Shown here: piece after piece, positions 1,940-53,339 of the stretch
Layout of the letters: each line of letters begins with the position of its first letter
Numbering within the stretch: the stretch's first letter is position 1
Source of the DNA: Phoronis australis
Taxonomy: Eukaryota > Animalia > Phoronida
Length of the DNA: 64,000 nt
Direction: 5' to 3'
Assembly (NCBI GenBank): GCA_002633005.1
Contig: NMRA01000175.1
Location: 147,432-211,431 of the forward strand
Notes under the pieces: generated by a model
What the model was told of the DNA's origin: nothing
Seen by the model: only the letters and a program-made list of their open reading frames with translations
The model's database searches: none
Translations under genes and position numbers: made by a program

Positions 1940-3640
1940 TCCTAGGTAAAACAGGACCGGCAGTCTGGTGAAACGGGTCTGGAACTTCATCGGTATTTTT
2001 GACCCGGGGTTCCACACCGAGCTTCCACAGGACCTTGTCTTCTTGTCCATGTCACCACCTTCAGTTGATTGCTTTGAGACCAAAAAAAATCTTTTTGTAT
2101 TACCTCATGATAGTTTTAGGAGCATTTCAGTTGTAAGTGTACTTCATTGTGTCTGAAAGAGATGACTGTTACATTGCTAGTTATTAATGTTCTGTTTTTA
2201 CATGTACAGTGTACATACCCCATTTGATGTGCTACCTACAGCAAACGTAATGGATTGTGGGAAGTATTACCTGCGCGGATTTCCGTACATAAGATCGGAA
2301 GACAAAAAGTCGGATGTAACAATACTCAAGAACCTATACTCGGCAATGCCGAATACACGAACGCACGTATGAAACTCAAGTTCGCCCTAAATATATCCTA
2401 GTGAGAATAAGTATTTTTAGATTTCAACTAACACTTTTATTCTGAGATATGCTTCCCAGTTATATTTTTGGGAAAATCTAACATACGCAAACTGGGCACA
2501 TATTCTGCTGGTCTTATATACGGAAGTCTACGGTGGGCCTTCTTAAACCTGTACACCATGAAAATTTCATTCGAGACAGTTTTTTAAATAGTAGGTTCAA
2601 CTAATATTCCGTTCATTCATGTCTGTGCGTTCGCGTTTAAGGCGTGATCGGAACAGGTAAGTGTTGTTTTGATTTTTGTTTGCTGTTTCCATATTTCATT
2701 CTGTAATATTTTCCCTCTTCAGATAGTTCTTTCAACGGTGGACAATAGTTTTCTGATAGACTGTTAAACTTTAACAACGTTCCTGTAAACATAACGAGGT
2801 TTGAGTAAACTCGCGCTGTCGATACTTAAAATTTTAGCAGAAGTGTATGACTTCCATCAGCAGAGAACTGTGGTCCATAACTGTAGCGAATATATGACGA
2901 AATGAAATGAAAACAATCAATATAGATGGAATTGTAATTGGTTAAGTATATATTAAGTAACAAGTGTTAAATTAAGAATATAGATAGAAGGGCTCTTGCC
3001 AGTTTCACGCCATTTATGAGTTCACGGCGTCTCAGTGATTTCGTTTTTCTTTTCAGGTCGTCAGTAGTCGATTCTCCGAACAGTCGTGATCTGCCGGGAA
3101 CCTATTGTATCAACGTGTGCAACCACGGTCTCGGGGGGACACCTGGATGACACCCGAAGAATTAGTGGGACTAAATCGACATTGGTGTGCAGCAGGAGGC
3201 CGGGTGAGGGGGGCGGGGTGCGCAAAGTAGTAGTGACTGGGGGAGAACTGCGCGAAATTGGTGGCAACAGTGAGACAGCGATCAAATGAAACGGCATCGT
3301 AATCATCTGTCCAGGTTACAATAGCCCAAGCTACCTGATTGAATGGTTATCAGTTTATATCATCTACAAGCAGATTTCGTGAGAATTTTCGCTGTCAGCA
3401 GCTAAGCTTGAGGTTAAAAACGTAAGCAAACGCAAATCTGTTAGGACATCTCTATTTCATGACGACACGCCAGTGTGTCGCCGGTCTTCACACAATGATA
3501 GACGTTTCAAAGGCTGCCGAACAGAAACGTTTCAATTATGAAAACGAGTGGGTGAATTTGATGTTGTAGGATTTGAAATTGCATTCGCTTTCTAGACCGC
3601 GCCATTTTGTATATAGTAAATTGATCGTGTCTTTAGCTAC

Positions 3641-3865
3641 GCAGTAGGCCTACTGTAGGAATCGACACATCCCGTAGTTTGGATCGTTTGCAGTAGGCCC
3701 ACTGTAGGAATCGACACATCCCGTAGTTTGGATCGTTTGCAGTAGGCCTATTGTAGGAATCGACACATCCCGTAGTTTGGATCGTTTGCAGCAGGCCTAC
3801 TGTTGGAATCGACACATCCCGTAGTTTGGATCGTTTGCAGTAGGCCTACTGAAGGAATCGACACA
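3641..3865 (+). repeat. 49-bp minisatellite, ~4.5 copies
   Basis: GCAGTAGGCCTACTGTAGGAATCGACACATCCCGTAGTTTGGATCGTTT starting at 3641, 3690, 3739, 3788 and 3837 (partial). No spacers. Confidence 0.95.
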
Positions 3866-4871
3866 GAAACTCCTCATTTTGCTAACATGATTGTCTTTGT
3901 AATCTATTCTGGATAATTGTTCATTCGTTTTCATGTTATAACTGTGCTTTCAGTTGAAAGGGAAATAATCGTGTCAGAGTTTATTTGAGTTTCGTTTAGT
4001 ATCTAGCAGACAATGCACGGATACCTTTAACAAATTTAAATATATTCTCTGTTCTCGTCATTGTTTATCAGTTTCATCATGATTGCAGTCGGTCCCACAT
4101 CCATTACGGTTACGTTTAACGCAAAATTCGTTAAAATTGGGAAAGAGAATTTTTTAACCAAACGTACTGTGACAAGTCTTAATAGTCAACAAGAAGCCCT
4201 TTTTGCTTCGGCAACGCTAGTCCGATATTCTTTTTTCAATGTAATTCACAACTCAAGGTTTGAGTGACACGAATGCGCTCAGGAGGCTTGAATTTTTAAG
4301 TGTACAGATTTATGACGCTTTTCTCGTTCGCAACTTACGAAAATATGTATCTATTTCTGGTGGACAAATCGATTCTTTACATCATGCTCATGCCGACTTC
4401 TGAAATTTTTTAAAGGATATAGCTCACCAAATTTTGACAAGAGGAATATGGCACATTTTAGGTCCGCCAAATTCGACAGAAGATTGCGCAACTTTACCGT
4501 ATGTTCTGTAGATTTGCGGATTATTTAGTCTTGTCACCGTAAATAAGTGTACAGCGAGGAAACCTTTTTTGGTACGTGTCTTGCGTCTAGGTAACACCCC
4601 CTTTTGAAGCGAACAGAAATGTGTGAATAGAGCTAGACGTACCAATAGGAAAGCGTAATCTGTGTGCAACACTGCTTCCCAAGGTCCATATTGATTACGC
4701 GGATTCATACGTCAGACTTCACAGCCAGGGATACATGATCACAACCACACTGACTGTGGAGAATTTGTTGCTGTAGTAGGCTGGCAGGCTCGTCATCATA
4801 GGTGGATGACAACGGGGGTCCTGCAATTTTTTAAAAAACCTAATATGTTTTTTCTATAATTAAAAGGTCAT

Positions 4872-4952
4872 CTCTGTCGTGACGTGACTTGAACCCGGGA
4901 TTTTATGGTAATTGTTCAGATGTTCTAGTCCTCTAAGTTACAGAAACCACCG
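4872..4952 (-). repeat. Degenerate tRNA-derived SINE head (paralogs ~24000-24080 and partial ~62140-62180)
   Basis: Minus strand GGTTTCTGTAACTTAGAGGACTAGAACATCTG...CCCGGGTTCAAGTCACG gives A-box-like and B-box-like motifs at tRNA spacing. No intact cloverleaf. Confidence 0.4.
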
Positions 4953-5010
4953 GTCTAATGCAGAAATCCAATCACACTTACATTAGGCATCTTATCCAAG
5001 CTGTAGAGTG

Positions 5011-5028
5011 CACCCACACACACACACG

Positions 5029-5060
<32 letters not shown>

Positions 5061-5085
5061 CACACACACACACACGCAGCACACA
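5011..5085 (+). repeat. (CA)n microsatellite
   Basis: Directly visible. Confidence 0.95.
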
Positions 5086-7984
5086 TATAATTTTGTCCAA
5101 CAGATGGCGTGTAAGAAGAGTATTAACTCTTAATTATAGCAGACCAAGGGTGCAATTTCTTACATTTCAATGACATACATATTATAGCAGATGACACAAT
5201 AATAAAAATTTTTGGAAAGATGAACAATAAAAAGCGTCACATGATCGGACAGAGAAAGAGAATGGGAGGAGATTGAGGCATTGTACAGAGCTACTTACAG
5301 CATGCTGCCACCAGGATAACAAACCCTAACCCCAGGTGGCAAGGTTTGAGGTGCAGACGTTTACCCAAATGCTGGAGCAGCTGCCATATGTTCGCTCACT
5401 AGGACCATAGATAAGGCTTAAAGGTAACACGGAGGCATATGAATAGAGCGAAAGTAGGTAGTAATAGTGAGACAGAGTAAATGGATAAGAATTATGCTGG
5501 GGTAGAATCTTATAAACATCGCTGACTACCAAAAGAGAGAAAAGGAGATAAATTATATTTACAATGTGGATACTTATAAATCAGGGGCCTGTTCCACGAG
5601 AACTGACTTGTCTAAGACAATTTTTTTAATTTCAGTCACTTTTAAGATAAACCTTAAACTTGTCTCAAAACCGTTTCAAGAAACAAATCTTAAGCTTGGC
5701 TTATGTTTTGTCTAAAGTTTGTTTATCTTTTCGGATGTGGAATTTTCAAAGTTGGGATGTTTGGACAAATCTTAGACATCAGTCAAAATGAACTTAAGCC
5801 AGTTTCTTGGAACGGATACCAGAGGTGGAAGCAATAGCGGCACCGTTGAGGATTGTGCAGTAGTTGAGTGAGGGAGGTATAAGAAACATCGAGTGACACC
5901 TGGAGAGGGGAAGTGAGAAAGGGTGACTGATACGGACAACAGATGACAGGGAGTGACAAGCTGGTGGATGATGATCACGGAAGAACAAACCAGCCAATAC
6001 TGACACCAGTGGAGGTGAGACGGGACGGATTGGGAAATGATGAGTTGGTGGTGAAGAACGGTTTTGCAGTGAGGGGAAAATGGACAAACGCATGAAGATT
6101 TTGATTGCATCCGCTGGGCTTCCAGCTGCTCGCGCGTTCCACGACAGTGTCCCGACCTGATTCTAAACAAGACATTAAATATAATAAAAAGACAGATGAC
6201 AAATCATTGAATATCCAGATCTTTGACTTCCCTGTGTCAGTGATGGAAGCGTATGTTTACAAGTTTTCTCTAAGTTGTAACAGAACAACGGGCACAAAAA
6301 CAAAGATGTCCGACTGACTGGTGGACCTTAGCAATCATGGTCCAGATTGCACGTGGACAATCAGCTGAGGTGCCATACTTGACCAACTGGAAATTATGTG
6401 GTATCTTAACTTATCTTGTGGTCTTTCAAACATAATACTCATCAATCGAACCACTTGCGAAATGGGGGGTAGACACGCAATAAAACTAGTCAAAATAAAA
6501 TTTTGAAGAAGGACGACTCGAAGTAAACTGACAAACAGAAAATCGCACCTTTGGCACAAATTTCGACGTTAGGGTAAGATTTATAAAATGTAAGCTGAAA
6601 ACACAGATAAAGTAAATGATTTTTATTATTAACCGTTCAGAGTCTCTATGGCGACAACCGGTTACAGAAATTCGATCTGCCCTACCCGAACTTGTTACCG
6701 CATACACATGATTGGCGTCTAAGAAGACTAATAATTCTTACTTATACCACATCAACGTGCTGATTTATCACAACACAGTTATATAGATCAATTATTATGA
6801 CAGCTAAATAATAGCATTTTTAGAAAAATGAACAATAAAAGGACACCATGATGGCACGGAGAAAGAGTATGGGAGGAGATTGGGGCAGTGTGCAGAGCTA
6901 CTTACTGTATGCTGCCACCAGGATACCAAACCCTAACCCCAGGTGGCAAGCTCAAAGGGGAGGTATCTTTACTCAAATGTTGGAAAAGCTGCCAGGTGTT
7001 CGCTCTCTTTTGTGTCGTGGTGATAATAGCTAGGAGTAACAAAGGCAAGGCTGATCAAAAACTGAAAGTAAATGGTGCAATAACAAGAAAAGTAACAAAA
7101 TTTCTAACAGAGAATATATATAGCTTCGGTAGAAAGCGGCTAACAAAAGAAAGAAAATTGCAGATGATCTAATTGTATATACAATATGTTTATATATAAA
7201 TGAAGAGGAAGAGGTGCAGGCAAGACTGATACCAGTGATGTGTTTGGTAGTTAACTAAGGGGGTGCAGGCAATACTGAAACCTGGAGAGAAGAGGGGATA
7301 AAGTGCAAGCATAGCTGCATGTGAACCATTAGGGAAGGAGAATGTCAATGAATCAATTTCTCAATAAGCAAACATTTTCACACCCTGTCGAACGGAGACG
7401 AAACGAGACAGGTTTCCTAGACATTTATCGTCGATTGGTTCAATATTGTTAGACGACGCATGCAAGATTTCGAAGTAGTCTTCAGTAGCATAAAAAAGTT
7501 CAAATGATAAAATATTTCCTGACGCCACACAAAGGCCAAAAGCCAATCCTGGACGTCAAATCTCACACGAAACAAATATTTCGTGATGACCAGTGTGATA
7601 AGTTGGAAATCTGTCAGATTCTAAAATGTCTTAAAGAATGATTAGGCGTGACAAGAATAAGTGTAATATCCATCAATTTGGGGTGTTACATAATCATTCT
7701 CCACAGTGTATGAGGATGCAGGGGTATTGTCGAACGTGGTTCACCACAATGTCCATATATGCAAATGACACACTTGATTCCTTAATACTAACATTAGAGA
7801 AGCTCAAAACAGAGATGTTTTTAGTAAGTATTGTTACTGTAACACTCCTTATTGAGTTGCCACAACTTTTTACATTTTAGACATTTTACGACCTGTGCTC
7901 AAAGAAAATACTAATTTATATTGGTCTGAAGTGTTTTATTATTTTGGGACAATTTTGTGATTAAGAATCGAGGAATTTCAGCAT

Positions 7985-8780
7985 CAGCCATTTGGCATAA
8001 TAAACAGAACAACAGTCTATTATGAAAGGGGGTATGAAAAAGGAATTATGCATTTTGTTTATGAATCAGTTTGTAATAGGTTTGATTTCTCTCCACCCTT
8101 AACTAATTTTCATGTTCACCTGTGCGTCGGTTTTTATCAAAGATTCCAGAAATACGAAATTCACTATATGGCTTCCAAACTTCCCCAAAGTGTTAGAACG
8201 TTTGAGAACAAAGTGATATTCCCACTTAATGAACTGAAGTGGGAACCGCAGGTCAACGATACTGATGCACCCATATGGTGGAGAGGGGGGCATACCTTTC
8301 CCTTTATTGTGAATCCAGATAAGTTTCTTTCATGCATTTGTAGCCATAAATGCATTTCTCGTCAAAATTGTTGTCAAGCAATCATATTTCTTGACATTTT
8401 GTAACACAAAGGCACAAAAAACATGACCCATCCCTGTTGGGATTGTATTGCGACCATTAATGTATGGTCTGCAGTTAGTCATTGGTTACTTGCTAAAACA
8501 CAATCTTTACTTAATCTTTCGTCTACAGACGTTGTCTTTGGCAAATTACACAAAACTTGCCGGAATACAATTAATTTACTCATCTGTCTGGAAAAATATC
8601 ACATCTACCGCCAAAGGCTCAGAAATGCTTCTCCCTCAATCGCAAATTTCAAGAAGGATGTGTTTAAGTATATTCAACATTCCAAAATATCTCTATTTCA
8701 GAGATTGCAAATATGAAATATTTAACAACCGATGGTCCTCTCTGATTCTTGTTTTCTTGAAAACACACGGGTTATAATTT
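7985..8780 (+). mobile_element. Highly decayed L1/Tx1-like ORF2 C-terminal remnant (paralog at ~37570-38390)
   Basis: Frame-broken PIWHN..VYYERGYEKGI and ATNAFLVKI....TFC.....MTH..WDC.....W (zf-RVT-like). Confidence 0.5.
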
Positions 8781-8869
8781 TGTTGTGAGGTCTCGAAATG
8801 GGCGCGCGTGGGTGCGGTGTCTGTGTGTGGCCTTTGTTTATTGTACATTGCTTTTGTGTTTTCAATAAA

Positions 8870-9480
8870 TGTAAAAAATTCTGTTAATGCTAGTCTGTTA
8901 TGTAACGTCTTTAATAAACTCTTTGACAATGGCCATTTTCCGAGCCGTGCCTATAGGGCACCATCATTCCGTCGTTATAAGAAGGAAATGCAGGCAGGGC
9001 AAAGAACTATAAAAGAACAATTTCGTTGTATAATTTGTAAAATAATGTCAGAACTGTAAACAAAAATAACAAATGATAGACGAAAAAATTGTGAAAAGAG
9101 ATCAACAATCAATCAGAAGCTTAACTGGTTTCAGCCAATAATATTCTTGTTTTCAATACATTTGTGTGGTCACCTCTAACGAAAATGTAAGAAGAATTTA
9201 TGTCTGCATGTTGATTTTAGCAAAACCTTCGACTGCATGAATAGAAATCATTTTCAACAAAACTGACCGCAGGAAATGTGAGTTTAAGTTGTTAAACATG
9301 CTGGGGAATATCGATAAGTGCGTGCCAAGACCATCAATCAAAATGGTCTTAAAATGTTTTTCGTGTAAAGTTGAAAACTGGGGGGACAAGGCTTTAAATG
9401 ATCACCTTGTATAATTTTTGATCAGTGGCTCAGAAGATTTCCTGAAACAGTAACCAAGTGGTGTTTACGCGTTAAACGTC
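8870..9480 (+). mobile_element. Decayed LINE RT N-terminal remnant (paralog at ~38500-39100)
   Basis: LLCNVFNKLFDNGHFP...IIP.YKKG....NY...VDFSKTFD in broken frames. Confidence 0.5.
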
Positions 9481-12369
9481 CAACATGACATACTTAGGAA
9501 TCGTTCTTTATTTCTTCTTGGTCGCGCTAAAATGTCGCACCATCTAAATTAAGGTTATCTCCAACCAAAAAAATGGTCATTTTACAATATTTCACATGTG
9601 TCTAGTAAAATACCTTATCTTCATTCTCGGGGAACTCCGAATACAAAGTATATACGGCGTAGCGAGAAAAAAAAGCACCTTGGAACCGCACAACCGCCTG
9701 GATACTTGTTTACTACTTATCCGAGGTCAAAGGTTAAAGGGCTTTCAATCAGATCCAATTTCCCGCCAGGTACAGAAAAGCTTCGTATACCCTCAGTCCT
9801 TTCATTCTCAAAATCGAAATAACATTGAGTAAACGAAGTGTACTTATGGTAGAATGGTGCCGGGGAAAACAAAACAAAACGTAATTTTCATCCTAAGGGA
9901 GTTGTGCGTCTACATGCACATACGACCGTTGGCGTTGAGAACGAATGCAACGGTCGCCTCACGCCTCAGTGGTCATGAACACAGCAAATTGTGAAAAGAG
10001 ATAAAACCTCACCCTTATTCCTTCATTCAATTAATGAATTGACATTTCAATGTTTCGATTTCATGCTAACGACAATGCTTTAACCACCGATTCGATTTTT
10101 GTTATCCATTTCTTACTTGGTTTCGTATCAGTCTCCCAACACGTGACGTGTACAGGCTAGGTGTATAACAATGAACTGTGACTTGTTTAAATAAAAGTAG
10201 GTCAAAGGTCGCAAACAACGGTAAGAGTTAGCTGGGAAAAAACCACGTTTTAATGATAATTAAGTTAATTACGCACTGCAAAATCAGTTGACATTGCGAG
10301 TGAATGTTGAAATAGCTAACATATTTAAGGTTTGTATAGGTTATGTGTACCGAAAACAAGTTTTCACCGAATAATTAACAGAAGCCTTTGAGATTTTCAC
10401 TTGTCCCAGTTAAATCAGCTTTTTCTCGGCTTTAGCAAATCGACTTTATTTGAACTTAGGAACACGAGTTTTCGAAAACGGCTCGCTGGATTTCGCTGAA
10501 ACTTTCCAAATTTCAAGATCCGAAACGAAATGCAATATCCAGTTAGCTACGCAATAAGAACGGGTTTCACCAGATCACTGCTTTGATTCGTTAATTAGAG
10601 ATGAACGAATTCACAAAACTTATTTGAGTGAGGTATCACTACAACTCGAGTGTGTTGCAACCAAATATATAAGTTGAACTAACGGAAAGAGTGAGTTGAG
10701 TTTTGCGCATGTCAGTTGTGTAATAAAGATAATAGGCCTATCGTCCAAAAGACACCACTTTATCATTGCGTGCGTTAAATTATTGATACCAGCTTTAAAT
10801 ATCCGAGTAGGGTAAGGTATTGACAGCGTAAACTGAAGTCAATAAGTACATTGAAATATCTTATAGAGTCAGGCGTTTTAACACCTCATAAAAATAATGT
10901 GCAACTGAAAATATAATTTCAATTTTCTTAGTTCACTGAATACATTGCAATTGAGAAGAAGATGGTATTTGTCCTCTATACAATTGAGTCAGAGATACAG
11001 CATTAACGCAGACGAGCCTTCTCTTTCAGGTTAAAGTTCGCAGACATAGCGTGCTTCGTGAGTACAAGATTTTTTTTCAGTGGTTTGGTTACCAGAATTG
11101 AAAGCGAAGCAGTCCGTGGAATCTGAAACAGACAACGCGACACGGAAGAAGTCTGTGAAAAAGTGTCGTTCAATACAGAGTTAGGATATCGAACTTCTGC
11201 AAGGAATGAAGTGCAAACTAATCTGCAAACCAACGCTTAAACTGCTTAGGAGATGAATATTTGCTAAGTGTAAACTAGTTTCTACTCGCTTCCCAAGACA
11301 TACATAAATCGAAGTTAGAATAGCCATGAATGATTCGAAACGAAACTGTGGGAGTGCACAGCCACAACCGAAATTTTAGCATGAGCAGTAAAAAGATCAA
11401 TGTTGATGATATTGGCAATAATAAGTGTTGTGTCTCACAATACTACAGCCGAAAAATACTGCACTTGCTTTAATTATCAAAGTTATTTATCATCTTTTAT
11501 TGAGAAAAAATTAATACAAAAGTAATCTGACAAAATTTCGTTTCTATGACGGCTCATTCTGTTAACACCTAAAAGACCGGTACTAACTATTAAGGTGGCG
11601 AAATTTTAATTACGTAATAGGTTAGCCACTGCAATAACTTTCTTGTTAATTTCTCTTCATTCTCGGCCGTGAGGGGGAGGGGGCTGCTATGACTAAGAAT
11701 TGGGCTTCCACCCAGCCAAAAATTCCTGGTCATTTCGTCTAAATACTTTTGGCATGCACTGCGGCTCGTTGTTGAGGAAACAGGAACTGAGCGGACAAAA
11801 ATCGTGAAAACCTATAGTACTCTGCAGAATACCACTGATCGGCTGTAGGTTGGCTGTGTTTGAACAGTTGTCTGAATAACGCCGCGTTTCATCGTTAAAT
11901 ATGTTGCGTAATACCAGGAAGAGATAACCAGGTTTTGTTTATCTCTTCCTGGTAATACCGTAACTAGAGAGCACAACAGCATTATACCGACAACAAAAAC
12001 GACGCTAATGTTGAAAATCACAAATTAGCCTCCATTATATTCAATGACAGAAATAGTTTAATATACTAAGTTGCATTTTAGCCTAAAAAACCGAACTATT
12101 ACCGCTCGGTATAGTCCTAACCAAGCAAAGAAACTGAAGACGTTGACAAGATTGGTAAGAAAGGATACGTTAACTGTTCTCGTCACCTCGGCTGTGGTGC
12201 TTTTGATCGCGCGTCTTCCAGCTCGTATTACTATGTACTTCTATTGTATTTTTTAAATTGATTCTTAGCCACAACATAGAAATGAACGGTTGTCACGTTG
12301 TTGGGATTTGCTTTCCGAGTCTGAGAACGTAGTTAGGTAGTGTCATGTGAAGGGCTCTCTTCGTTTCTA

Positions 12370-12905
12370 TTATGCGGGAAATAACTCAGATAGACCATAG
12401 GCCAAAGTCTTACCAACAACGCTCCAGACTTCAACGTCGTTCCATTGAATCGAAACTCCACAGTTGATAGCAGTATTGTACGAGGAATGTTTGCATGAGC
12501 CGGTCCTTCCATCAGAAAAGAGGGACAAGTCGGGACCCTTTCCAAAGGATGGACCAGATCCCACGTGATCGTACATCGCATATAATGCATTCTCGACGTT
12601 GTACCTGACCGAACTGCATCCTTGCACACACAGTTTAAACAGGAATGCGTTGGTATCTCGTAGGTAACTGCCACTACTTCCCCAGGAGGCCGAGGCATAA
12701 CCACCGTAGACGGTTCCAGTCACCATCTCTTTCCCAAAAGAAATGGTTGGGCCCTTGTTGTCGCATTTCTCGTGAAAATATGCACCAAACATACCGTCAC
12801 GGTTTCCCTTGAACAGGAGCTTGAATGCTTTTCCCGGGAACCATTTTATCAACTGCTCTACCTGATCTGTAGTCAGCAGACTTGAATTCAGAACACTCCT
12901 CGCAT
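12370..12905 (-). CDS. Gene 1, coding exon 2: TLDc domain (spliced protein ~338 aa)
   Basis: Acceptor TTTTAG| at 12906/12905. G+AT gives Asp in frame, reading DARSVLNSSLL...W...FKLLFKGNRDG...FHEKCDNKGPT...GTVYGGYAS.SW...D.NAFLFKL...GPSFG.G.DL...DVEVW. These are canonical TLDc motifs. Stop at 12370-12372. Confidence 0.88.
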
Positions 12906-13353
12906 CTAAAATTCAAACGTATCATACAGTGAAGCTCAACAGTCCAATTGTCTACGCTGGAATTAAAACCAAACTACAGAAAAGCCAGTACAAGTAATGC
13001 TTTATTACAGGAACAGTGACAAGGTATAAAGAGAAATCTGGGTGTAATTTATTCACTAACAACGTGAACTTAACTGAAAATGACTCTATCTGGTAACGAT
13101 GAACAGTTACATGCTCTGATTCGAAGCCTATAATTAAGATATTTAAATCACACGTAATGACACCATCAAATAACAACAACTAACGGTGAACGGTAAGATA
13201 TTTTATGCAACACGTAATCTTTTTAGTAACAAATTAATAGATAAATGAAAAATCACAAATGTTATAAAACATTTGATAGTCATGCATCTTATAGACTCAA
13301 TAATTCAGTTGTTTAAAAATGCTGATGTTTATTTTGCAATAGGCCTGACTTAC

Positions 13354-13834
13354 CAGTAGTCCATATGGTGACGTCATTTTTCAGCGATTCTTGACTCATC
13401 AAAGATTTGAAGCGAAGGGAGTCCAAAGCTACGTGAGAATTTTCTTCCTGGCATTTTCTTTTCGCGCTTTCCCAATTCACTGATACGTTGCTCAGTTTGA
13501 AGCATGAATGTTCTATGTAACGAAATTCGCTTGGACAATACAGTTTACTCAGAATGAGTTCAAGGGAAGACAATGTCTTTTCATTTTGATATCTCCCGTT
13601 CTGAATTAACTTAGAAACATTTAGTGATATGACATCACGTATGTCTTTCAATTCAGTTTGCATGGTGTTAAGAATTGTCGCTTTAAACTCCCGGTTGTTT
13701 CGCTCTTCCTCTTTCAGTAAGGTGATGATTGACTCTTCGAGAACAGATCTCTTCACGGCAGCCGAAGCCACCTGGAGAGACGCTATTTGATTATTCAGCA
13801 CAACGGCAACTAAGAGAATATAAGCGCTGAACAT
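13354..13834 (-). CDS. Gene 1, coding exon 1: signal peptide + predicted coiled coil + N-terminal half of a C-type lectin-like domain
   Basis: ATG at 13834 (an in-frame upstream ATG at 13861 is an alternative). Hydrophobic N-terminus MFSAYILLVAVVLNNQIASLQVASA. CTLD N-terminal pattern YCPSEF..IEHSCFKL....NWESAKRKCQ..NSHVA...TIW. The exon ends at a phase-1 donor G|GTAAGT (13354/13353). A paralog lies at 55533-56034. Confidence 0.85.
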
Positions 13835-13927
13835 TTTTCCTAAGGAATCCAAAATGTTCATAGACACAAAATAAGCCTTTCCGCGAGACCCGACGAACAA
13901 CAGCACAGTTACTAGTTTGTAACGCCG

Positions 13928-13999
13928 CCTTTTAAAGACTCGGGTTTCGCTAAAGAATAGTTCCCACTTGTCAATCAAACTAATTATTCCGGCCAATCA
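13928..13999 (-). promoter_or_regulatory. Putative core promoter of gene 1 (CCAAT box + TATA-like element)
   Basis: GGCCAATCAC (CCAAT 13993-13997) and minus-strand TTTAAAAGG (13928-13936), ~100-160 bp upstream of the ATG. Both are conserved in gene 2. Confidence 0.4.
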
Positions 14000-14289
14000 C
14001 AGCCCAGAACATCGTACACATCAGGATAGGGCGTCACCATTCTCTCTCAAACACTGTTTGCGATCGAAAGAACCAAGAGGGTTTAAGGATGGGCTCGTTG
14101 ATTCGCGCCTACAGTCCGAGGTACAACATCTTGGACTCCATGATGCATCCGAGATTAACATGCATCCACACTAGGACACCGGGACTCTGTGGCACTCTGT
14201 CTACAGCGACTAATAAAACCCTCCATCAATTTCGAAAAGTGACAAGTCAGATGAATCAGATTCGGTAGTGGTTGCTTCTTGGGTCCTAG

Positions 14290-17200
14290 TAGACCGGCAG
14301 TCCAGAGCACTTAGCATAGATGAACGAGGTACCAACATCTGACCACGGGAGCATTTAGAGTCCACCTCAGTATGTTCAAAAATGGACGTCTGCCGTAGTC
14401 TGCACTCTGGGTGTGACCCCTGGGGGTCTTACAAAGGGCCCAAAAATGAGCTAGACTAGATATTCGAGGTACCGGCCAAAACTGATTTAAAATGAACGAT
14501 AGTACCGCACTGAACACCGAATGACCCATGACAGAAAAATTGCACTCTGGAATGGGTCCGGCAGAACCCCCCAAAAATCTCAACCACGGTATGCCAGAGT
14601 TAGACTAGACTTTCGAGATACCAGCCAAAACTGATTTCAAACGAACAACAGTGTCGCACTGAACACCAAATGACCCATGACAGACAAATTGCCCACTGGA
14701 ATGGGTCCGGCAAAAACCAAAAAAGGACCCCCCAAAATGAGCTGGCACATACATTCGAAGTACCACACAAAACAATTCCATGAGATTCAATACATGTCAC
14801 AGGTCACTAAATGCCCTATGACAGACAAATTACACTCTAGATTGTGCCAGGCAGAAACACCCCAAAATCCCCCACCAGGTATGCCATAAAAATTTGAGCC
14901 AGACTAGATTGTCGAGGTACCGGCCAAAACTTATTTAAAACGAACAATAGTACCGCACTGAACACCAAATGACCCATGACAGACAAATTGCACTCTGGCA
15001 TGGGTCCTGCAGAAACCAAAAAACGACCCCTCTAAAAAATGAGCTAGCACATACATTCGAGGTACCACACAAAACCAAATCCATGAAATTCAATACATGT
15101 CACAGGTTACTAAATTCCCTATGACAGACAAAATTCGCTCTGGATTGTGGCTAGCAGAAACCCTAAAAATCTGAGCCACGTATGCCATTTTTTGAGACAG
15201 TTAGATTTTCAAGGTATCGAATTAAACTGATTTAAAAACAACAACCGTGCTGCACTGAAAAACCAATGACCAATGAAAGACAAATTTTACTCTGGACATA
15301 GTCGACCAGAAACCCAGAAAGGACCTTAAAAATGGAGCTACAATTGTCCATGTAGTTTTCCCATGCTAGTTCAAGTACTCGGTTGGGAAACCCAAACAAC
15401 TGGATAATAAGACGTTAAAAAGCGCACCAGGGAAATTGAAGTATTGATATTCTCAATTGGTGACAAAAGTGGTGTATTTAAGTCAACTGCAAAAAGCGGG
15501 ACCGCAGGAAACAAAAACTAATTATATAAAGCTTTCGTTCACTGAAGCCTGTATTTACTCTTAAGATGCTATCACAACAAGCGAAAAGCAGACGGGTGTC
15601 AAGATATAAGACAATTAACTCACATCGTGGTAAGTTTTTGAAGAAACTTTTAAATGATTTCGAAATTCGGTGTAGTGTATATAGTGTTTGCAATGTTTTA
15701 GTTTCGCGGAGTCATTTGTCGANACAATAGTACCGCACTGAATACCAAATGACCCATGACAGACAAATTGCACTCTGGAATGGGTCCGGCAGAAACCAAA
15801 AAAAACCCTCTAAAAATGAGCTAGCACATACTGTACATTCGAGGTACCACACAAAACCAAATCCATGAAATTCAATACATGTCACAGGTTACTAAATTCC
15901 CTATGACAGACAAAATTCGCTCTGGATTGTGGCTAGCAGAAACCCTAAAAATCTCAGCCACGTATGTCATTTTTTGAGACAGTTAGATTTTCAAGGTATC
16001 GAATTAAATTGATTTAAAAACAACAACCGTGCTGCACTGAACACCCAATGACCAATGAAAGACAAATTTTACTCTGGACATAGTCGACCAGAAACCCAGA
16101 AAGGACCTTAAAAATGGAGCTACAATTGTCCATGTAGTTTTCCCATGCTAGTTCAAGTACTCGGTTGGGAAACCCAAACAACTGGATAATAAGACGTTAA
16201 AAAGCGCACCAGGGAAATTGAAGTATTGATATTCTCAATTGGTGACAAAAGTGGTGTATTTAAGTCAACTGCAAAAAGCGGGACCGCAGGAAACAAAAAC
16301 TAATTATATAAAGCTTTCGTTCACTGAAGCCTGTATTTACTCTTAAGATGCTATCACAACAAGCGAAAAGCAGACGGGTGTCAAGATATAAGACAATTAA
16401 CTCACATCGTGGTAAGTTTTTGAAGAAACTTTTAAATGATTTCGAAATTCGGTGTAGTGTATATAGTGTTTGCAATGTTTTAGTTTCGCGGAGTCATTTG
16501 TCGATGGTCGATATAACGTCCTCCGTGACAAAATACAAATCACCCCTAATTTGGTGTGCAGAAACGTACTTGAGTCCCAATGCTATTTAAATAAATATAT
16601 AAACAACGACGTGTTTCGGTAACAAGGGGTGGTAGGTTAGGTGATTAATTCACCACATCTCTTTAGACAGACAAGAAGAGTTCTTGAAAACACACCCGAC
16701 ATTTCAAAGTCACATGGCTGAGTACAATACATTTTTAGACACAGGCGCGTCCGTTAACTTAAAAACCCGGATGTGCGAAGACCGTCTGCCATGACATCAC
16801 GGAATGTGTTCCTTGAATTTGTGATTTTGGCATTCTTTTGGCATTTTTGTCGCCAAATCACCACTCGAAGGCAATTTGAAGAAATCAAATGAAAGAAGGT
16901 ATTCTAAGAGATGTTCGATGCTAGTTTCGTGGAGTCCCATGCACATTTGAGTAGAAAATTTTGAGGAAATAGATTTCGAGTGTCCAACCTTTATGTTTTC
17001 TTATATGTATTATTGAGTGACGTCATTTGCGATCGAGGAACAGATAAACCCAAGCGCCTGTGTTTTTAGAGATGTAGTGTGCGGAAATCTCGGCCCAACT
17101 ACGAAGTTCTGAGACTGTACATATACATGATTAATCCTCTTTCAGGAATCTGATGCTTGCTTTGCGCACAAACAACATTGCGGACTACATAGAAGTACTC

Positions 17201-20147
17201 CCAGGTCTCATCAATTACCCTCGTTAAGGTTGTCTTTTTCTCGACCAGCTCAAAAACGTCGCACCACAAACTCGAATGATTCTGGAATCAGGGGCGTTCT
17301 CGGTTAGAAGAACTAGCAAATTTTTTTCAAGTGCAGCAATAGATTTAATTCTTGAACAGACCGTTAACATAGATGCAGCTTCACCTTTGAAAGGAATTAG
17401 GAATTTTCACAATTCCAACTCTGCCTTGAGAAGATGATGCATTACATTAACTCAGCGAGGTATGTCTGTTACGGAGTTGAGGTATCTGGAAGGACTAGTC
17501 TGAAGAGGAACCAGCAATGCATCTACGAGGAAGTAGAATTGACAAAGATAGCCACGACAAAAAATACCAACTGATGAATGCAATTTCAAATTCCTGTGAT
17601 CCCTTTTCAGAGCCAGCAACAACATCGGATTATTTGCTGAATACTGCTGCTGGTAAAGCAGTCGCACAAGAAACCAAAGAGTATTTAACCGGGTGCTTTG
17701 ATGCTGGACGCAAACTCCGACTGCAATTCCAAGATCAGTGTTCAACTGATAAGCAGAGGTTTTTGAAGCAAATTAGACGACCAAAAGTGCACAATTTTGC
17801 AAAAGAAAGCATAAACAAGAAGCAACCTCTGGGCAAGGACAAGTCAATAGCTGAGAGCCTTCCAGACGTTTTCATTCGTTTACTAGTTATCATTTCGGAA
17901 ATGTCAGCTTTTGACATGAGATATGTGATGACGTCTCCAATTACGCAATACCCACTGTCCATTGCACACTTTGACGGATCCATGATCAAGATAGAAAAAA
18001 GCAAGTTGCTAGGTAAACTTGAGGGTTTCCAAGGAGGCTTCTCAGAAACACCTGTTCCGTTGATTGACGTGACCTTAATAGATGGGGAGTCTTGCTACAT
18101 TCGTTTCTGTCTTCAAGTGGAAACATCGTCTCTTATGGAAATCTGGCCCGAAACCTTCTAGACTACGTCTGCGCAAGCTCAAGTAAGGAGGTCCATGTCT
18201 TATTTGATGTATAAAAAACGCTCTCGCTGAAGAGTAGCGAATGGCAATTGCGTGGAGCAGAAGACTAACCTTTCGTCATCAATGGACAAAAGCAAACACC
18301 CCTTACAGTGTTACCATGGCAGCTGATCATCCACCAGATCTTCAAGGCTCCCACGAAGAAGAAGACAGTCACGCTTCTTGACTTCCACTTAGCCAACTAA
18401 AGTGGCAATACATTGATCAGGGCTTCTCGACACGAATGCTATTGTAACATACTGTCATCGGAATGATCGTACGACAAGTGAAGAGCGGCAGAGAAATACC
18501 TTTCGAGCGTGTAATAATGGACTGTGGATCTAATAATAACCGCAGACGTTTTGACGTCACCGCTATTGTTCACACTTTAGAGTCTATACAATATGGTCTC
18601 GCTGCAGCATTGCCTGGTCTGTATGCAATGACAGGGTGTGACGTCACAGCAGCACTGTATAGGAAAGGGAAAGTGAGGCCTCTGAAAATCCTGATGAAAG
18701 ACTCATCTGGGACACTTATCAGCTTCTTCTCAGAGTTAACAAGCGTAGATGTCCCTGACGAAAGAAAGTTAGAAGAATACATATGCATTCTATTTAGTGA
18801 AGGGCGGAGTCAAAGATGTCAATGAAGCAAGATATCTGAAATTAATCGAGATGACCGGAAAAATAAACAAGGTAATAACTGTAATTGATAAAATATAGTT
18901 CATAAAATCAACGAAAATAATTTAAAATGTTTTCCTAGTATTAAACCAAAAGGCCCAATTTCACGTCATACTTAAAAAACAGTACATGGTGGTGAGGTTT
19001 TATGTTCTTGTTCGTCAGCTGTTAGACAATTGGTCCCTCGTCAATAAAATTTTCTCACTATTTATTTCAGGAAAAGCAGATGCCCAGCATCACGAAGATT
19101 GACTGCGCATTGCTTCCTCCTTGCCGAAATACACTATTGAACTGACTCAAACGAGCCCATTATGTTGCGCTGGGGTCAAGCGGATTCGGTCGATCCGGGA
19201 AACGGTTTTAACTGTCATAGGGTATTTGGTAACCAGTAACATCTATTTTAATCACATGATGACGTAGCTCCTCTTAAGGTGTAATTGAGTTTCTGGCGAA
19301 CGCCTTCCAGGGCACAATTTGTAGTCTGTCATGGGTCATCTGGTGCGGCACGATTATTGGTTTTATCAGTTTTAGCCGGTATCTAGGGTATCTAATGTAC
19401 CTCAAAGTTTTGATAGCATACTGTGGTTGATATTTTTTGAGGGTTTCTGCCAGGCACAATCCAGAGTGTATTTTGTCTGTCATAGGGCATGTATTGAATC
19501 TCATGGAATTGGTTTTGTGTGGTACCTCGAAGTATGTATTAGCTCATTTTAGGGGTCTCCTTTGTGGTTTCTGCCGGACCCATTCCAGAGTGCAGTTTGT
19601 CTGTCATGGGTCATTCAATGTTCAGTGCGGTACTATTGTTCGTTTTAAATCAGTTTTGGCCGGTACCTCGAAAATCTAATCTGGCTCAAATTTTTGATGG
19701 CATACCCTTGTTGAAATTTTTGGGGGTTTCTGCCGGTCACAACCCAGAGAGTATTTTGTCTGTCATAGGGGTTTTAGTGATCTGTGACATCTATTGAATC
19801 ACATGGAGTTGGTTTTTTGTGGTACCTGGAATGTATGTGATAGCTCATTTTGAGGGTGTCCTTTTTGGTTTCTGCCGGACCCATTCCAGAGTGCAATTTG
19901 TCTATCATGGGTCATTCGGTGTTCAGTGCGGTACTATTGTTCGTTTAAAATCAGTTCTGGCCTGTACCTCGAATATCCAGTCTAGCTCAGTTTTTGGGCC
20001 CTTTGTAAGTCCCCCAGGGGTCACATACAGAGTGCAGACAACGGCAGACGTCCATTTCTGTACATACTGAGGTGGACTCTAAATGCTCCCGTGGTCAGAT
20101 GTTGGTACCTTGTTCATCTATGCTAAGTGCTCTGGGCTGCCGGTCTA
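14290..20147 (+). mobile_element. Academ (AcademX-type) DNA transposon with long TIRs and 3-bp TSD
   Basis: Termini TAGACCGGCAG...CTGCCGGTCTA. Inverted arms of several hundred bp with internal subrepeats (14290-~15350 vs ~19210-20147). TSD TAG at 14287-14289 and 20148-20150. The empty site GGGTCCTAG-GTAAAACAGGACC is visible in the paralog at 1937-1958. Internal XPG/FEN1-like coding remnants. Confidence 0.8.
17330..19190 (+). pseudogene. Decayed Academ transposase / XPG-like nuclease coding region
   Basis: Broken ORFs with motifs YPLSIAHFDGSMIK.EKSKLL, LIDG, SHEEED (~18350), LPGLYAMTGCDVTAALYRKGKVRPLKIL (H3TH-like) and LPPCR..L...RAHYVA (~19110). Stops and frameshifts are present. Probable intron ~18872-19070. 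Confidence 0.7.
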
Positions 20148-22198
20148 TAGGGAAAACAGGACCGGCAGTCTGATGCAACGGGACTAGAACCTCACCGGTA
20201 TTTTTGATACGCAGTTCAACACCAAGATTCCAGAGACCTTGTCTTTTTGTCCATGTCACCACTTTCAGTTGATAGTTTTGAGACCAAAAGGAAGCTTTTT
20301 ATATTACCTTATGATAGTTTTAGGAGCATTTCAGTTGTAAGTGTATTTCATTGTGTTTGATTTGAAAGCGTTGACTGTTACATTGGTAATTATTACTGTT
20401 CTATTATTACTATATACTTTTATTCTCAGATATGCTTCCTGGGTATATTTTGGGGAAAAATCTAACATACACAAACTGGGCACATATTCTTCTGGTCTTA
20501 TATACGGAAGTCTACGGTGGGCCTTCTTAAACCTGTAAACCATGAAAATTTTAATCGAGACAGTTTTTTAACTAGTACGTTCAACCAGGAAGTCGGTCAG
20601 TACGTTCGCGTTTAAGGCGTTATCGCAACGGGTAAGTGTTGTTTTAATTTTTGTTTGGTGTTTCCATATTTCATTCTGTAATGTTTTCCCTCTTCAGATA
20701 GTTCTTTCAACGGNATTACATGTACATACCCCAGGTGATGCACATCTACAGCAAAGGTAAATGATTGCGGGAAGTATTACCAGCTATTTCCGTACATATG
20801 TTAGGGAGACAAAATGTCAGATGTAACAATACACAAGAACCTATATTCGGCAATGCCGAATACATGAACGCACGTATGAAACTCTAGCTCGCCCTAAATA
20901 TATCCTAGTGAGAATAATACTATTTTTAGATTTCAACTATACACTTTTATTCTCAGATATGCTTCCTGGGTATATTTTGGGGAAAAATCTAACATACACA
21001 AACTGGGCACATATTCTTCTGGTCTTATATACGGAAGTCTACGGTGGGCCTTCTTAAACCTGTAAACCATGAAAATTTTAATCGAGACAGTTTTTTAACT
21101 AGTACGTTCAACCAGGAAGTCGGTCAGTACGTTCGCGTTTAAGGCGTTATCGCAACGGGTAAGTGTTGTTTTAATTTTTGTTTGGTGTTTCCATATTTCA
21201 TTCTGTAATGTTTTCCCTCTTCAGATAGTTCTTTCAACGGTGGACAATAGTTTTCTGATAGATTGTTATACTTTAACAACGTTTCTGTAAACATAGAGAC
21301 TTGAGTAAACTCGCGGCTCTCCATACTTAAAATTTTAGCAGAAGTGTATGACTTCCATCAGACCTGTAGGAAGAACTATGGTCCGTAACTGTGGGTAATG
21401 TACGACGCAATGAAATGAACACGGACGATAGAGATAGGATTGTAATTGGCTAAGTATATATTAAGTAACAAATGGAAAATTAAGTATAAAAATAAACAGA
21501 AAGGTTCTTGAATTGCCTGTTTTACGTCTTTATGAGTTCAGTGATGTACTGTGATTTCGTTTTTCTTTTCATGTCGTCACCAGTCTATTCTTCGAACAGT
21601 CGTGATCAGCTGGGAACCTATTGTATCAACGTGTGCAATTACGGTCTCGGGGGGGGGGTGCACCTGGATGAAAACACCCGAAGGATTAGTGGGACTAAAT
21701 CGACATTGGTGTGCAGCAGGAGACCAAGGACGCAAAGCAGTAGTGACTGGGGTGTAACTGCGCGAAATTGTTGACGATAGGAGGGACGACGATAAACTGG
21801 TAACGATCGGGTGGAACGGCACTGTTGTCATCCGTCCAGGTTTCAATAGCCCAAGCTACCTGATTGGGTTAAGTGTACACGTTAATGACACTTTTCTCTT
21901 TCGCAATTTAGGAAAATATGTGTTTAAGGACAAATCGATTCTTTATACATACTGCTCATGCCGACTTCTAAAATTTTTGAAAAGATTTAGCTCACCAAAT
22001 TCGAACAACAGCGAAATGGCACATTTTTAGGACCGCCAAATTCGACACCACAAAAATCTTGACCAAGAATGCTTGTTCTTTTGGAATCAATTGTGAGTGT
22101 CTGAAAATGTACGTGCTGTAGATTAGCGAATCATTTAGTCTTGTCACTGTACGTAAGTGTACAACGGGGAAACGTCTACTGGTACGTATGAACGACCC

Positions 22199-22354
22199 CT
22201 AGCGTGCGTTCAGTAGACGTTAGGACCTACGCTAGGACCTAGCTAAAACCTAGTCAAAGTCACGTGTTCTCGTTTAAAATGCACGGCAATACCTCACGTA
22301 ATCTCGCGAAGTCTTGCTTTTTAGCGAGGTCCTAGCGTTACTGAACGGGAGGCT
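22199..22354 (+). mobile_element. Half copy of the 883-1192 palindromic element
   Basis: Matches 1039-1190 (GCGTGCGTTCAGTAGACG...CTGAACGGGAGGC). Confidence 0.7.
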
Positions 22355-22850
22355 GGACTGCGAAACCAGATTAGGCAAATATTCGCGAGATGACACAGGT
22401 CCTTGCATAATAGCAATCTTATCGCGTGATCACACTAGCTACGTGTATACCTGCGTTGCGTCTACGTGGCCTAGCCCATTTCCGTGAAGAGAACAGAAAT
22501 GTGTGAATGGAGCTAGACATATAAATGGGCAGGCGTAATCTGTGAAAAACATTGCTTCCCAAGGTCCATATGGATTACGCAGTTTCATACGTTAGTCTTA
22601 ACAATTCGGGGATACATGATCACAACCACACTGACTGTGGAGAATTTGTTGCTGTAGTAGGCTCGTAATCATAGGTGGAGGACGACAGGATACCACATTT
22701 TTCAAAAAGCAATTAATATGTTTTCCTATAATTAAAAAGTAGTCACCAGATGAAATGCCGAAAAAATAGGGAAAGTTTTAATGAAATGAAAGTGAAGTGC
22801 CTTTTATACTCTTTAAACATTGATTTCTTTATTTAGTGGTCGGTAGTACG

Positions 22851-29463: not shown

Positions 29464-31560
29464 TACAGGTAATTGTGTGTAAGACTGTCTTTGTAGCGTA
29501 AGCCAATCAACATTGCAATCGCAAACTCGTCTATGGTTGGATAGTGGCCGAGTAGCAGAATTCCATGAAGTGCTCTCAAAATTGCCTATCAGAAAGTATA
29601 GATCCAATAATTGACCAGATTGCTCGTGGAGACATAGAAAGTGCAGCAGATGTTGTCACAAATCTGTATAAACAAACTGCTACATCGATGGCAATGTTTA
29701 TAAAGAAATGTGTTTATGCTATACGGCAGAGCAAACAACCACTTGGTGGAACAAAGAATTACAAATTGCAAAAAACCTAAGAAATCACTCTTTGAAAATT
29801 TTTCAGAGAGATTCCTCCCCTGGAATATTGGCCGTATACAATGAAAATGAGAAGCAATTCCGCATGTTATACAAAGAAAAAGAAAAAGAGCATCAATAGA
29901 AGTTGCTGGAAAATATTTTGGATAGTAGAAATGATCCAAAGCAATTCTGGGCTCTGGTAAAATCAAATTTTAATCTTAGTCCGAAGGAAACTTTGACAAC
30001 TTCAGAACGGTGGTACGTTTATTTTAATTTGTTGCTCACTCTGAACGGATAGAACTGGGCGACAATATGTCAGATGCGGTCGTAAGACAACAAGAAAATC
30101 ACAACATTTATTGTGATGCTTGTGACGAAAATCTACCCGGTGATCTGAACAGTTGTTTCTCATGTGAGGAAATTGATTGCGCTATAATGGACCTTATAAA
30201 CGGTAAAGCAGCCGCATTGATCATGTTAGCCATTGTTCCTGTATTGCAACTGTTTTTCAGTGGAATTTTCGCTACAAGTCATTACCCCCAGGGCTGGTGT
30301 GACGCAATAATTGGTCCCATATTTAAACAGGGTAACATTGAAGATGAGAAGAATTATAGAGGTATCTCATTGTTGTCAGCTATAGGAACACTATTCACCA
30401 AACTTTTGAATAACCGGCTTAGCACATGGGCTGAGGCAAATGGCGAACTTCGTGAATCACAGGCGGGATTCAGCAAGGGTTATTACACTCAAGACCAAAT
30501 GTTTACGCTTCAGGCCATGTGCCAAAAATATATCACTAAGCCGGGGGGGGGCGTTTTTATTGTGCTTTTGTCGACTTCTAGAAGGCTTTTGACAGAGTTT
30601 TTAAATTGCTGCTCTGGTATAGATTACAAAAAATTGGTGTCCGTGGTAACGTACTTTAAGTCCTGAAATCTATGTACATCAAATTACGTTCATGTTTAAG
30701 GATTCGAGAAGGGTTAACCGACTTTTTTGACTTTTCTGTCGGCACCAGAAAAGAGTGTATGACCAGCCTGCTATTGTTTGTCATGTATCGGAACGAATTT
30801 ATCGAAGTCTTAGATAATGCCCAAAACATTAGAGGGATTTATGAAAATGCGCCGGAAATCAACTCGCTATTGTATGCTGTTGACATGGTTCTGTGCTCCA
30901 GCACTCAAATTAATTTGCAAAGGATGTTAAACTGCCTTTACGATTATTGCTCTTCTTGGGGCATGAGTTAGACAATTGCTATCAAAATACGGTTTTTAAG
31001 AAATTTGGTTGAATGAATGTGTCACATGCGAAGTCTTGTTTTTAATTATCTTCAAGCAAAGAGTTAATGACTGCTACGAACAACGTTGGAGATCAGAAAT
31101 TGAACATAATGCAAAACTTAAATACTACTGTAATTTTAAGACCCTTTACTGTTTTGAACCATATCTTAATTTACCGCTACATAATATTCTTATTCAAGCG
31201 TTTACTGGGTTACGTTACTCTAACCATAGACTACAAGTGGAAGTGGGTAGACACGAGAAAGTGGAATATTATAATAGATTATGTTTGATTTGCAATGATG
31301 GTCTTGTAGAGGATGAATGCCACTTCCTGTTGATTTGCAAGGGATATTGTGAACTTAGATCACGTTTTATGAAAGAAGTTCAATGGAAGCACGCAACTCA
31401 AGAATCTTGTATACGCCTGCTAGCTAATGCAGATATATGTTATTAGATATGTGTATTCTGCCCTTAAAAGACGAGAAAAACTCTTAGGTGGGTTGACTGC
31501 GTGTGCAAATGTGCCTGTTTAATTTTTTGTTGATTGTACTTTCGGCCAAAGGCCTTTAAT
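29464..31560 (+). mobile_element. Decayed 5'-truncated non-LTR retrotransposon (RTE-X/CR1-group-like RT)
   Basis: PIFKQG......NYRGISLLSAIGTLFTKLLNNRL, ESQAGF, GTRKEC.TS.LLF, LLYAVDMVL (decayed YADD), and C-terminal LRYSNHRLQVEVGR...RLCLIC....VEDECHFLLIC. Frameshifts present. Followed by a microsatellite tail. Confidence 0.8.
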
Positions 31561-52245: not shown

Positions 52246-52326
52246 CGCGTAAAAATCATCATTCGAATATAAAATCATCAAGACGTTCAGAAAAGTAGTC
52301 TATAGCAAATTTATCAAATGTCCGAA

Positions 52327-53277: not shown

Positions 53278-53339
53278 TTTTCTCAGAGGGCGAGAGCACT
53301 TTTCAGAAATGCAGCCTGTATTCAAGAACTTGACATCAC

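Follow-up and report, generated by a model that had tools for sequence, protein, structure and literature searches.

A TLDc domain apparently nested within the C-type lectin-like domain of predicted secreted proteins from Phoronis australis

Two complete genes lie on the same strand, 42.2 kb apart, within segmental duplicates detected by self-comparison of the 64-kb window (the whole 64,000-nucleotide stretch of Phoronis australis DNA analysed here), and their predicted products combine a signal peptide, an amphipathic stalk, a C-type lectin-like domain (CTLD), and a TLDc domain. The CTLD is most likely complete in both products, with TLDc nested where the long loop would be. A structure of three coding exons, in which the TLDc exon is spliced to a third exon and TLDc is thereby nested in the CTLD, is very probable, and this nested CTLD/TLDc architecture in a multi-copy family is apparently both real and undescribed. 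A sequence-only reading of the same DNA had placed TLDc, via a phase-1 intron, in a scaffold of signal peptide, stalk, and C-type lectin, and this placement is upheld here. Its proposal that TLDc is C-terminal gives way to a conserved splice donor after TLDc and a CTLD-completing third exon in both genes. The half CTLD that it described holds for the end of exon 1, which is the N-terminal half, but the rest of the domain lies on the third exon in both genes.

Exon–intron structure

All exons and introns of both genes are on the minus strand. In gene 1, coding exon 1 (13354–13834; 481 nt) encodes a predicted signal peptide (aa 1–25), a KR pair (28–29), the stalk (aa 30–99), and the N-terminal half of the CTLD (aa 100–160, with C100, C111, and C128), and it is covered by sense-strand reads from paralogues. 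Intron 1 (12906–13353; 448 nt, GT-AG, phase 1) begins directly after the WIGL-equivalent strand, which here reads VTIWT, and is bridged by paralogue reads. Exon 2 (12414–12905; 492 nt, symmetric phase 1-1) encodes TLDc (Pfam E 1e-20). The predicted intron 2 (11123–12413; 1291 nt, GTAAGA...TTTCAG, phase 1) holds the stop codon at which a two-exon model would end, and the coding part of exon 3 with its stop (11031–11122; 92 nt) supplies the C-terminal part of the CTLD, including C329, C344, and C352 (six-frame CTLD profile E 3.3e-4).

Gene 2 repeats this arrangement. Its coding exon 1 (55533–56034; 502 nt) has the same layout as that of gene 1, and intron 1 (54864–55532; 669 nt) is again GT-AG and phase 1. 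Exon 2 (54330–54863; 534 nt, symmetric phase 1-1) is assigned to TLDc by Pfam and by an AF2 model. The predicted intron 2 (47386–54329) is much longer, at 6944 nt, and includes an N gap and a DNA polymerase B fragment; the coding part of exon 3 with its stop (47294–47385; 92 nt) encodes the C-terminal part of the CTLD with C350, C365, and C373 (six-frame CTLD profile E 4.6e-4). That two open reading frames are joined through a phase-1 GT-AG intron, as the sequence-only reading had it, is borne out: within ±3 nt of the proposed sites, the sole GT..AG introns are 13353–12906 and 55532–54864. The same junction is indeed present in gene 2, but its conservation is not independent as had been claimed: with flanks and introns still 65%–82% alike, the two genes are duplicates, and the exon 1–2 junction that they have in common is inherited.

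The case for a third exon begins at the end of TLDc. Directly after the last TLDc strand, both genes have the donor G/GTAAGA, with the first intron base at 12413 and 54329; GGTAAGA occurs five times on the minus strand of the 64-kb window. The stop codons of the two-exon model (12372–12370 and 54321–54319) lie just 3′ of this conserved donor, and just after the donor the genes are set apart by a one-base indel and reach their stops at different distances. Self-comparison places exon 3 of each gene within a homologous block (10847–11212 and 47110–47475), in which the acceptor TGTTTCAG is present in both genes and is followed, in phase, by 92 coding nt including the stop. In both genes, the length of exon 2 is divisible by three and a phase-1 intron flanks it on either side. 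Frames are open under either model, giving 338 and 348 aa with two exons and 354 aa (gene 1) and 375 aa (gene 2) with three; 11 of 11 cysteines are common to the two three-exon products.

Polyadenylation hexamers do not settle the choice between the two-exon and three-exon models. ATTAAA at 12062 and AATAAA at 54028, the latter in the predicted intron 2 of gene 2, are both downstream of the two-exon stops, and neither AATAAA nor ATTAAA occurs within 530 nt 3′ of gene 1 exon 3. At the other end of the genes, an extra upstream coding exon joined through a TTAG before the ATG was rejected, since this TTAG is 5 nt upstream in gene 1 and 6 nt upstream in gene 2. An upstream in-frame ATG is present in gene 1 only. 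At around 13936 and 56161, TTTAAAA followed by a common GC-rich stretch occurs 102 and 127 nt 5′ of the two ATGs and is a possible candidate core promoter.

The C-type lectin-like domain

The last 60 residues of exon 1 constitute the N-terminal half of a CTLD (best PDB phmmer match E 3.7e-6; custom CTLD profile E 5e-12 and 6e-14). Pfam, proposed with the sequence-only reading as a check on both domains, recognised TLD, but Lectin_C gave no match to exon 1 alone. The custom profile, for which 27 database proteins supplied 155 domains, was searched against all 2117 six-frame stop-to-stop peptides of the window. Five matches had E < 0.3, of which three were the exon-1 copies (profile positions 2–66) and two were the exon-3 peptides (positions 97–126); the next match was at E 0.35. 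Against the PDB, gene 2 exon 3 gave three matches, all to the C-terminal end of CD94 (best E 0.08), and gene 1 exon 3 matched CD94 chains alone, weakly (E 1.9).

Long-form CTLDs have six cysteines joined in a canonical disulfide pairing, and each three-exon protein contains this set of six. The CTLD is taken as most probably whole because the in-phase exon 3 matches profile positions 97–126 and supplies the missing cysteines and because exon 2 is symmetric. What is missing is the long loop (profile positions ~67–96), and a TLDc domain of 164–178 aa stands at that place. The calcium site of a sugar-binding CTLD is marked by EPN or QPD in the long loop and by WND. Neither product has an EPN/QPD motif, and in place of WND gene 2 has MED and gene 1 has TEK; with the EPN/QPD loop missing and WND replaced, canonical calcium-dependent sugar binding by this CTLD is therefore unlikely. 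The position of intron 1 has a counterpart in fish lectins, for which a known CTLD intron position is reported to lie 3′ of the WIGL motif (PMC514892).

The TLDc domain

Both copies of exon 2 match the TLDc family (Pfam PF07534, E 1e-20 and 8e-20; 74.8 and 71.8 bits against a cut-off of 24.5) over profile positions 4–169 of 170. The AF2 model of gene 2 exon 2 (pLDDT 84.6, pTM 0.85) retrieved the TLDc structures of mEAK-7, OXR2, NCOA7, and TBC1D24 as its top Foldseek matches, and 13 of the 13 rows shown with E < 0.01 were TLDc entries. Matches to known TLDc structures, the fold of which has been described (PMC8329711), ranged from E 9e-7 to 1e-4, with TM up to 0.71.

The family's core glycines, cysteine, and glutamate are kept in both domains. 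By motif, spacing, and alignment to mEAK-7, G37, G67, and E171 appear to match Ncoa7 G815, G845, and E938, residues reported to be required for V-ATPase binding (PMC8608904). Beyond this core, the two TLDc domains have in common four extra cysteines that are found in none of the 28 aligned homologues, although at one of the four positions 27 of the 28 have a gap; the alignment comprises 28 of 30 TLDc homologues, with P0057 and P0058 left out. The four added cysteines, along with three N-glycosylation sequons common to the two proteins (N72, N116, and N167/174), fit an adaptation to the secretory pathway.

Two of the TLDc homologues, P0007 and P0008, have hydrophobic N-termini followed by a Cys/His zinc-finger-like motif and may themselves possess a signal peptide. 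Matches to Toxin_4 (Pfam E 0.02–0.06, below the cut-off) were taken as cysteine-pattern noise, and no sign of a toxin role emerged for either gene in this analysis.

Signal peptide and stalk

The only strong hydrophobic stretch is at residues 3–13 (11-residue mean hydropathy 2.7), and after residue 30 no 19-residue window exceeds 1.06. This N-terminal stretch lacks a basic N-region and is followed by A-x-A at 23–25 and KR at 28–29. On hydropathy, the one method used for the call, the N-terminal segment is predicted to be a signal peptide that gives entry to the secretory pathway, which argues against a cytosolic location of TLDc.

Downstream, the amphipathic helix of about 70 aa that had been noted earlier is supported by a hydrophobic period of 3.68 over residues 30–99, matched in 9 of 2000 shuffles. 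A model of exon 1 (mean pLDDT 52.5) shows the stalk as helical at low confidence (pLDDT < 50) and the CTLD half at 70–81. No fixed heptad register extends along the whole stalk (best a/d hydrophobic share 0.43), and a trimer prediction of the 70-aa stalk, run without an alignment and with controls not folded, scored 0.13 against a mark of 0.32 and is given no weight either way.

Transcript evidence

RNA data comprised three raw-read runs (X1–X3, 2026 samples) and one older contig set (X4), all under the same species label; around 18%–19% of each raw run was read, and reads were aligned to gene 1 at 90% and 80% likeness. Reads at least 99% alike to gene 1 numbered 0 of 322, 0 of 293, and 0 of 98 at 90% likeness, and 0 of 1174, 0 of 825, and 0 of 157 at 80%; hence, the RNA signal derives from paralogues or distant alleles. 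Within this signal, seven reads (six from X1, one from X2, none from X3 or X4) pass from 13361 in the CTLD half to 12847 in the TLDc exon, and two X1 reads bridge 13358–12899 with an in-frame linker. A further 274 and 189 loose ends at 13361 run into a linker ending in DM, and DM opens the TLDc exon of gene 2. Exon reads fall almost wholly into one strand class, as is expected of minus-strand transcripts in a standard stranded library. Since the lectin half and the TLDc exon are connected in frame in paralogue reads, the CTLD-half/TLDc fusion is transcribed in the family. The RNA check that had been suggested for the 13354/12905 junction thus yields an in-frame exon 1–2 join in paralogue reads, but none of these reads is at least 99% alike to gene 1.

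Further 3′, the signal thins. No read crosses exons 2–3 in the three runs or the contig set aligned to gene 1, the 3′ half of exon 2 has zero coverage at 80% likeness, and sense-strand depth over exon 3 is 1–2 in X1 and X2 and nil in X3, against up to 248 over exon 1. Divergence of the paralogues from gene 1 could explain the thin coverage of the 3′ half of exon 2 and of exon 3. At least three further TLDc/CTLD family sequence variants are present in the reads.

Divergence between the two copies

Gene 1 and gene 2 are unevenly alike, with an identity of 88% in exon 1, 73% in exon 3, and 56% in the TLDc exon. Amino-acid differences amount to 72 of 164 in TLDc vs 20 of 160 in exon 1 (p 3e-10). 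The dN/dS ratio is 0.71 (0.47–1.09) for TLDc, 0.51 (0.26–1.13) for exon 1, 0.28 (0.07–1.11) for the stalk, and 0.23 (bootstrap 0.06–0.79) for exon 3. By the simpler count, constraint on exon 3 is non-significant, with differences at 5 of 30 second positions vs 2 of 8 fourfold sites (p 0.62). TLDc differs at similar rates at second positions (44 of 164) and fourfold sites (10 of 45), without significant constraint; its ratio of 0.71 shows neither diversifying selection nor clear constraint.

Synonymous divergence also varies along the genes, with a dS of 0.125 in exon 1, 0.53 in exon 2, and 0.70 in exon 3 (fourfold-site contrast, p 0.09). Exon 2 thus has the higher dS as well, and the contrast between exon 1 and TLDc could stem from homogenisation of exon 1. 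The pattern suggests gene conversion over exon 1 or, alternatively, an exchange of TLDc exons. The exon 1 dS of 0.125 is also below the divergence of the aligned introns and flanks (65%–82% identity).

Homologues and known systems

None of the 30 TLDc matches and none of the 29 CTLD matches combines the two domains, in collections of limited reach for spliced animal proteins. The TLDc exon matched 13 of 934 candidates in one search and 30 of 2364 in another; Lectin_C is absent from all of these matches, and the best CTLD-profile value among them is E 0.05. Exon 1 matched 0 of 1059 candidates when compared with longer proteins and gave 29 matches against 1.84 billion representatives. All 15 of the 15 that were Pfam-scanned have Lectin_C and no TLD, and 0 of the 29 also match the TLDc exon. 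A tblastn comparison with phage gave no match. No report of a secreted or lectin-fused TLDc was found in the literature searched, mostly at the level of abstract openings, and the words secreted, extracellular, signal peptide, and lectin are absent from a 2026 TLDc review (PMC13570293). The suggestion of an undescribed family holds to the extent that these searches, with their limited reach, brought no described one to light.

By language-model features, the nearest scaffold is that of the perlucin-like and Acp29AB-like soluble invertebrate lectins (Atlas clusters), with a score of 0.87 that serves as a lead only. These lectins are alike in having a signal peptide, a helical neck or stalk, a C-terminal long-form six-cysteine CTLD, and multiple copies; both genes here, however, have TLDc in place of the long loop and possess neither EPN/QPD nor WND. 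A CTLD core without the long loop is itself known from compact CTLDs of the Link-module type. The present core is alike to these and to the non-sugar-binding natural killer (NK)-type CTLDs such as CD94, to the C-terminus of which exon 3 is closest, but differs from both in that a whole foreign domain fills the loop position.

On the TLDc side, the domain has the same fold as OXR1, NCOA7, TBC1D24, mEAK-7/TLDC1, and TLDC2 (PDB 4acj, 7obp, 6r82, and 7u8o) and IFI44-like proteins, with core residues kept. Known TLDc proteins have been studied as intracellular regulators of the V-ATPase or of oxidative stress, whereas here the domain comes after a predicted signal peptide, is lodged within another domain, and contains four additional cysteines. 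It is nearer to protist and invertebrate TLDc of the BTB, fn3, and IFI44 types (28%–58% identity over partial alignments) than to mEAK-7 (E 3e-6).

Collectins, ficolins, and C1q-domain proteins are secreted proteins consisting of a stalk and a globular head. The comparison with them made in the sequence-only reading is apt for the stalk–head layout, provided that the stalk oligomerises, but it is a loose one: unlike collectins, both translations lack a Gly-X-Y collagen region and a calcium-dependent sugar site, and the head is a composite of CTLD and TLDc.

Alternative explanations

That the protein instead ends after TLDc, leaving half a CTLD and TLDc as the C-terminal head, is very improbable. 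Such a two-exon model can point to open frames that end in stops, to ATTAAA at 12062 and AATAAA at 54028 downstream of those stops, and to the lack of any read across exons 2–3. It leaves unaccounted for, however, the conserved donor at the TLDc boundary, with an indel and tails of unequal length right after it, and the in-phase third exon that holds the three missing CTLD cysteines in both genes, and C128 would be left without its usual partner. Somewhat less improbable, and compatible with the nested structure, is that the TLDc exon is an optional cassette, such that skipping would yield a loop-less CTLD protein (190/197 aa) beside the nested form. Exon 2 is symmetric, the skipped frames are open, and the skipped form of gene 2 scores 51.8 bits against the CTLD profile vs 44.0 for the full form; nevertheless, the joints listed in the RNA data are all exon 1–2, none among those listed being exon 1–3, and, of the loose ends where exon 1 stops, the strongest continues into the start of TLDc, and this possibility is considered unlikely. 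Both copies could also be silent or decaying duplicates, with the working family members elsewhere, a reading with which the lack of reads at least 99% alike to gene 1 in ~18%–19% of three runs and the similar second-position and fourfold differences in TLDc (44/164 vs 10/45) would agree. All six exons nonetheless have open frames, the splice sites are preserved along with 11 of 11 cysteines, the stalk has a dN/dS of 0.28 (0.07–1.11), and the RNA sampling amounts to three 2026 samples and one older contig set only; hardly more weight is given to silent duplicates than to the two-exon model.

Two further alternatives concern location and activity, and both are improbable. The N-terminal segment might be an uncleaved signal anchor, rendering the product a type II membrane receptor like the NK-cell lectins, with stalk, CTLD, and TLDc extracellular. 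The 19-residue hydropathy peaks of 1.66 and 1.81 are in keeping with this, as are the likeness of exon 3 to CD94 and the alignment of exon 1 with type II neck-CTLD proteins. The hydrophobic core of ~11 residues followed by polar ones, A-x-A at 23–25 and KR at 28–29, and the lack of a cytoplasmic tail tell against it, as do the perlucin-like and Acp29AB-like Atlas clusters nearest to the scaffold (0.87, a lead only); it is judged about as improbable as silent duplicates. Alternatively, and with a barely greater probability, TLDc may retain a known activity—protection from oxidative stress within a secretion, or V-ATPase binding after uptake—given that G37, G67, and E171 are kept in apparent correspondence with Ncoa7 G815, G845, and E938. 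These same residues, however, are kept in 25–28 of 28 unrelated protist and animal TLDc homologues and thus mark the fold. Moreover, V1, the part of the V-ATPase bound by TLDc proteins, is cytosolic, and no translocation domain is present.

Proposed product, origin, and significance

We lean, on balance, towards a secreted protein in which a stalk and a CTLD present TLDc, in place of the sugar-binding loop, as a variable protein-binding head. Splicing of exon 2 to exon 3 would give a complete CTLD around TLDc, the two parts of which would fold together with the three usual disulfides into a compact pedestal without canonical calcium-site sugar binding. Guided by its signal peptide, the protein would enter the secretory pathway, in which the four cysteines added to TLDc would form disulfides and the KR site may allow N-terminal trimming. 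Were the stalk to bundle several chains, the heads would bind with avidity, with TLDc as the outward-facing binding head. As to origin, a TLDc exon flanked by phase-1 introns may have entered a signal peptide–stalk–CTLD gene at the intron after the WIGL strand, with subsequent loss of the loop-coding sequence; the gene would then have been multiplied through segmental duplication, its TLDc exon diverging fastest.

A conserved scaffold with differing heads is a pattern typical of recognition proteins, and a role in recognising non-self or cell surfaces is given close to an even chance, tending towards the lower side. The immune, toxin, or gamete-recognition roles raised in the sequence-only reading are conjectural. 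More doubtful is the broader proposal that grafting into the ligand-binding loop of a C-type lectin has remade TLDc as a disulfide-stabilised extracellular recognition domain. On this view, the expressed multigene family would owe the variety of its heads to diversification or to the swapping of cassette exons, and its members would form a new class of variable proteins for innate recognition.

We know of no agreed biochemical activity for TLDc. If a naturally secreted, fast-diverging TLDc is encoded here, it would show that the fold is able to act as a binding surface in a general way, and a secreted form would be a simple soluble system in which to seek TLDc ligands. The architecture would also illustrate cleanly how a symmetric exon can nest one domain at the long loop of a CTLD. 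Such nesting is mistaken for a truncated lectin by gene callers and domain scans, and similar genes may therefore hide in other invertebrate genomes; equally, the family, the function of which is inferred, may be restricted to one lineage.

Duplicated units and neighbouring elements

Gene 1 is contained in a duplicated unit at 1945–14279 that has collinear homology with 20148–58908 and 58935–63854. The second unit (20148–58908) holds gene 2 and is enlarged via insertions, and the start of a third, consisting of the downstream flank only, occupies 58935–64000 and extends past the window end, where any gene belonging to it would lie. A partial exon-1 copy on the minus strand (57334–57599) adjoins a single-N gap and is 98.5% identical to gene 2, and it is probably an allelic or assembly overlap rather than a third gene. 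The tandem array described earlier is accordingly upheld for two complete same-strand genes in segmental duplicates, but not for this third, partial copy. Single-N gaps at 15723, 20714, and 57333 each sit between duplicated stretches that are 98%–99.7% identical, which is typical of allelic overlaps in scaffolds.

At the junction of two duplicated units, an element at 14285–20147 has 157-nt inverted ends that are 95% complementary and many subterminal repeats; it contains a 220-aa open reading frame (17499–18161) with no Pfam match and is probably a DNA transposon. In intron 2 of gene 2, a DNA polymerase B fragment (52246–53913; PF03175, E 3e-5, below the cut-off) falls inside a perfect inverted repeat of 574 nt that borders the N gap at 51914–52245, and may be either a Polinton-like relic or an assembly artefact. 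Broken fragments of LINE-type reverse transcriptase occur on the plus strand at 44982–46521 and 30028–31446 (RVT_1 E 9e-24 and 0.006). A 318-nt palindromic MITE-like element is located at 879–1196, and a partial second copy of it lies at 22189–22356.
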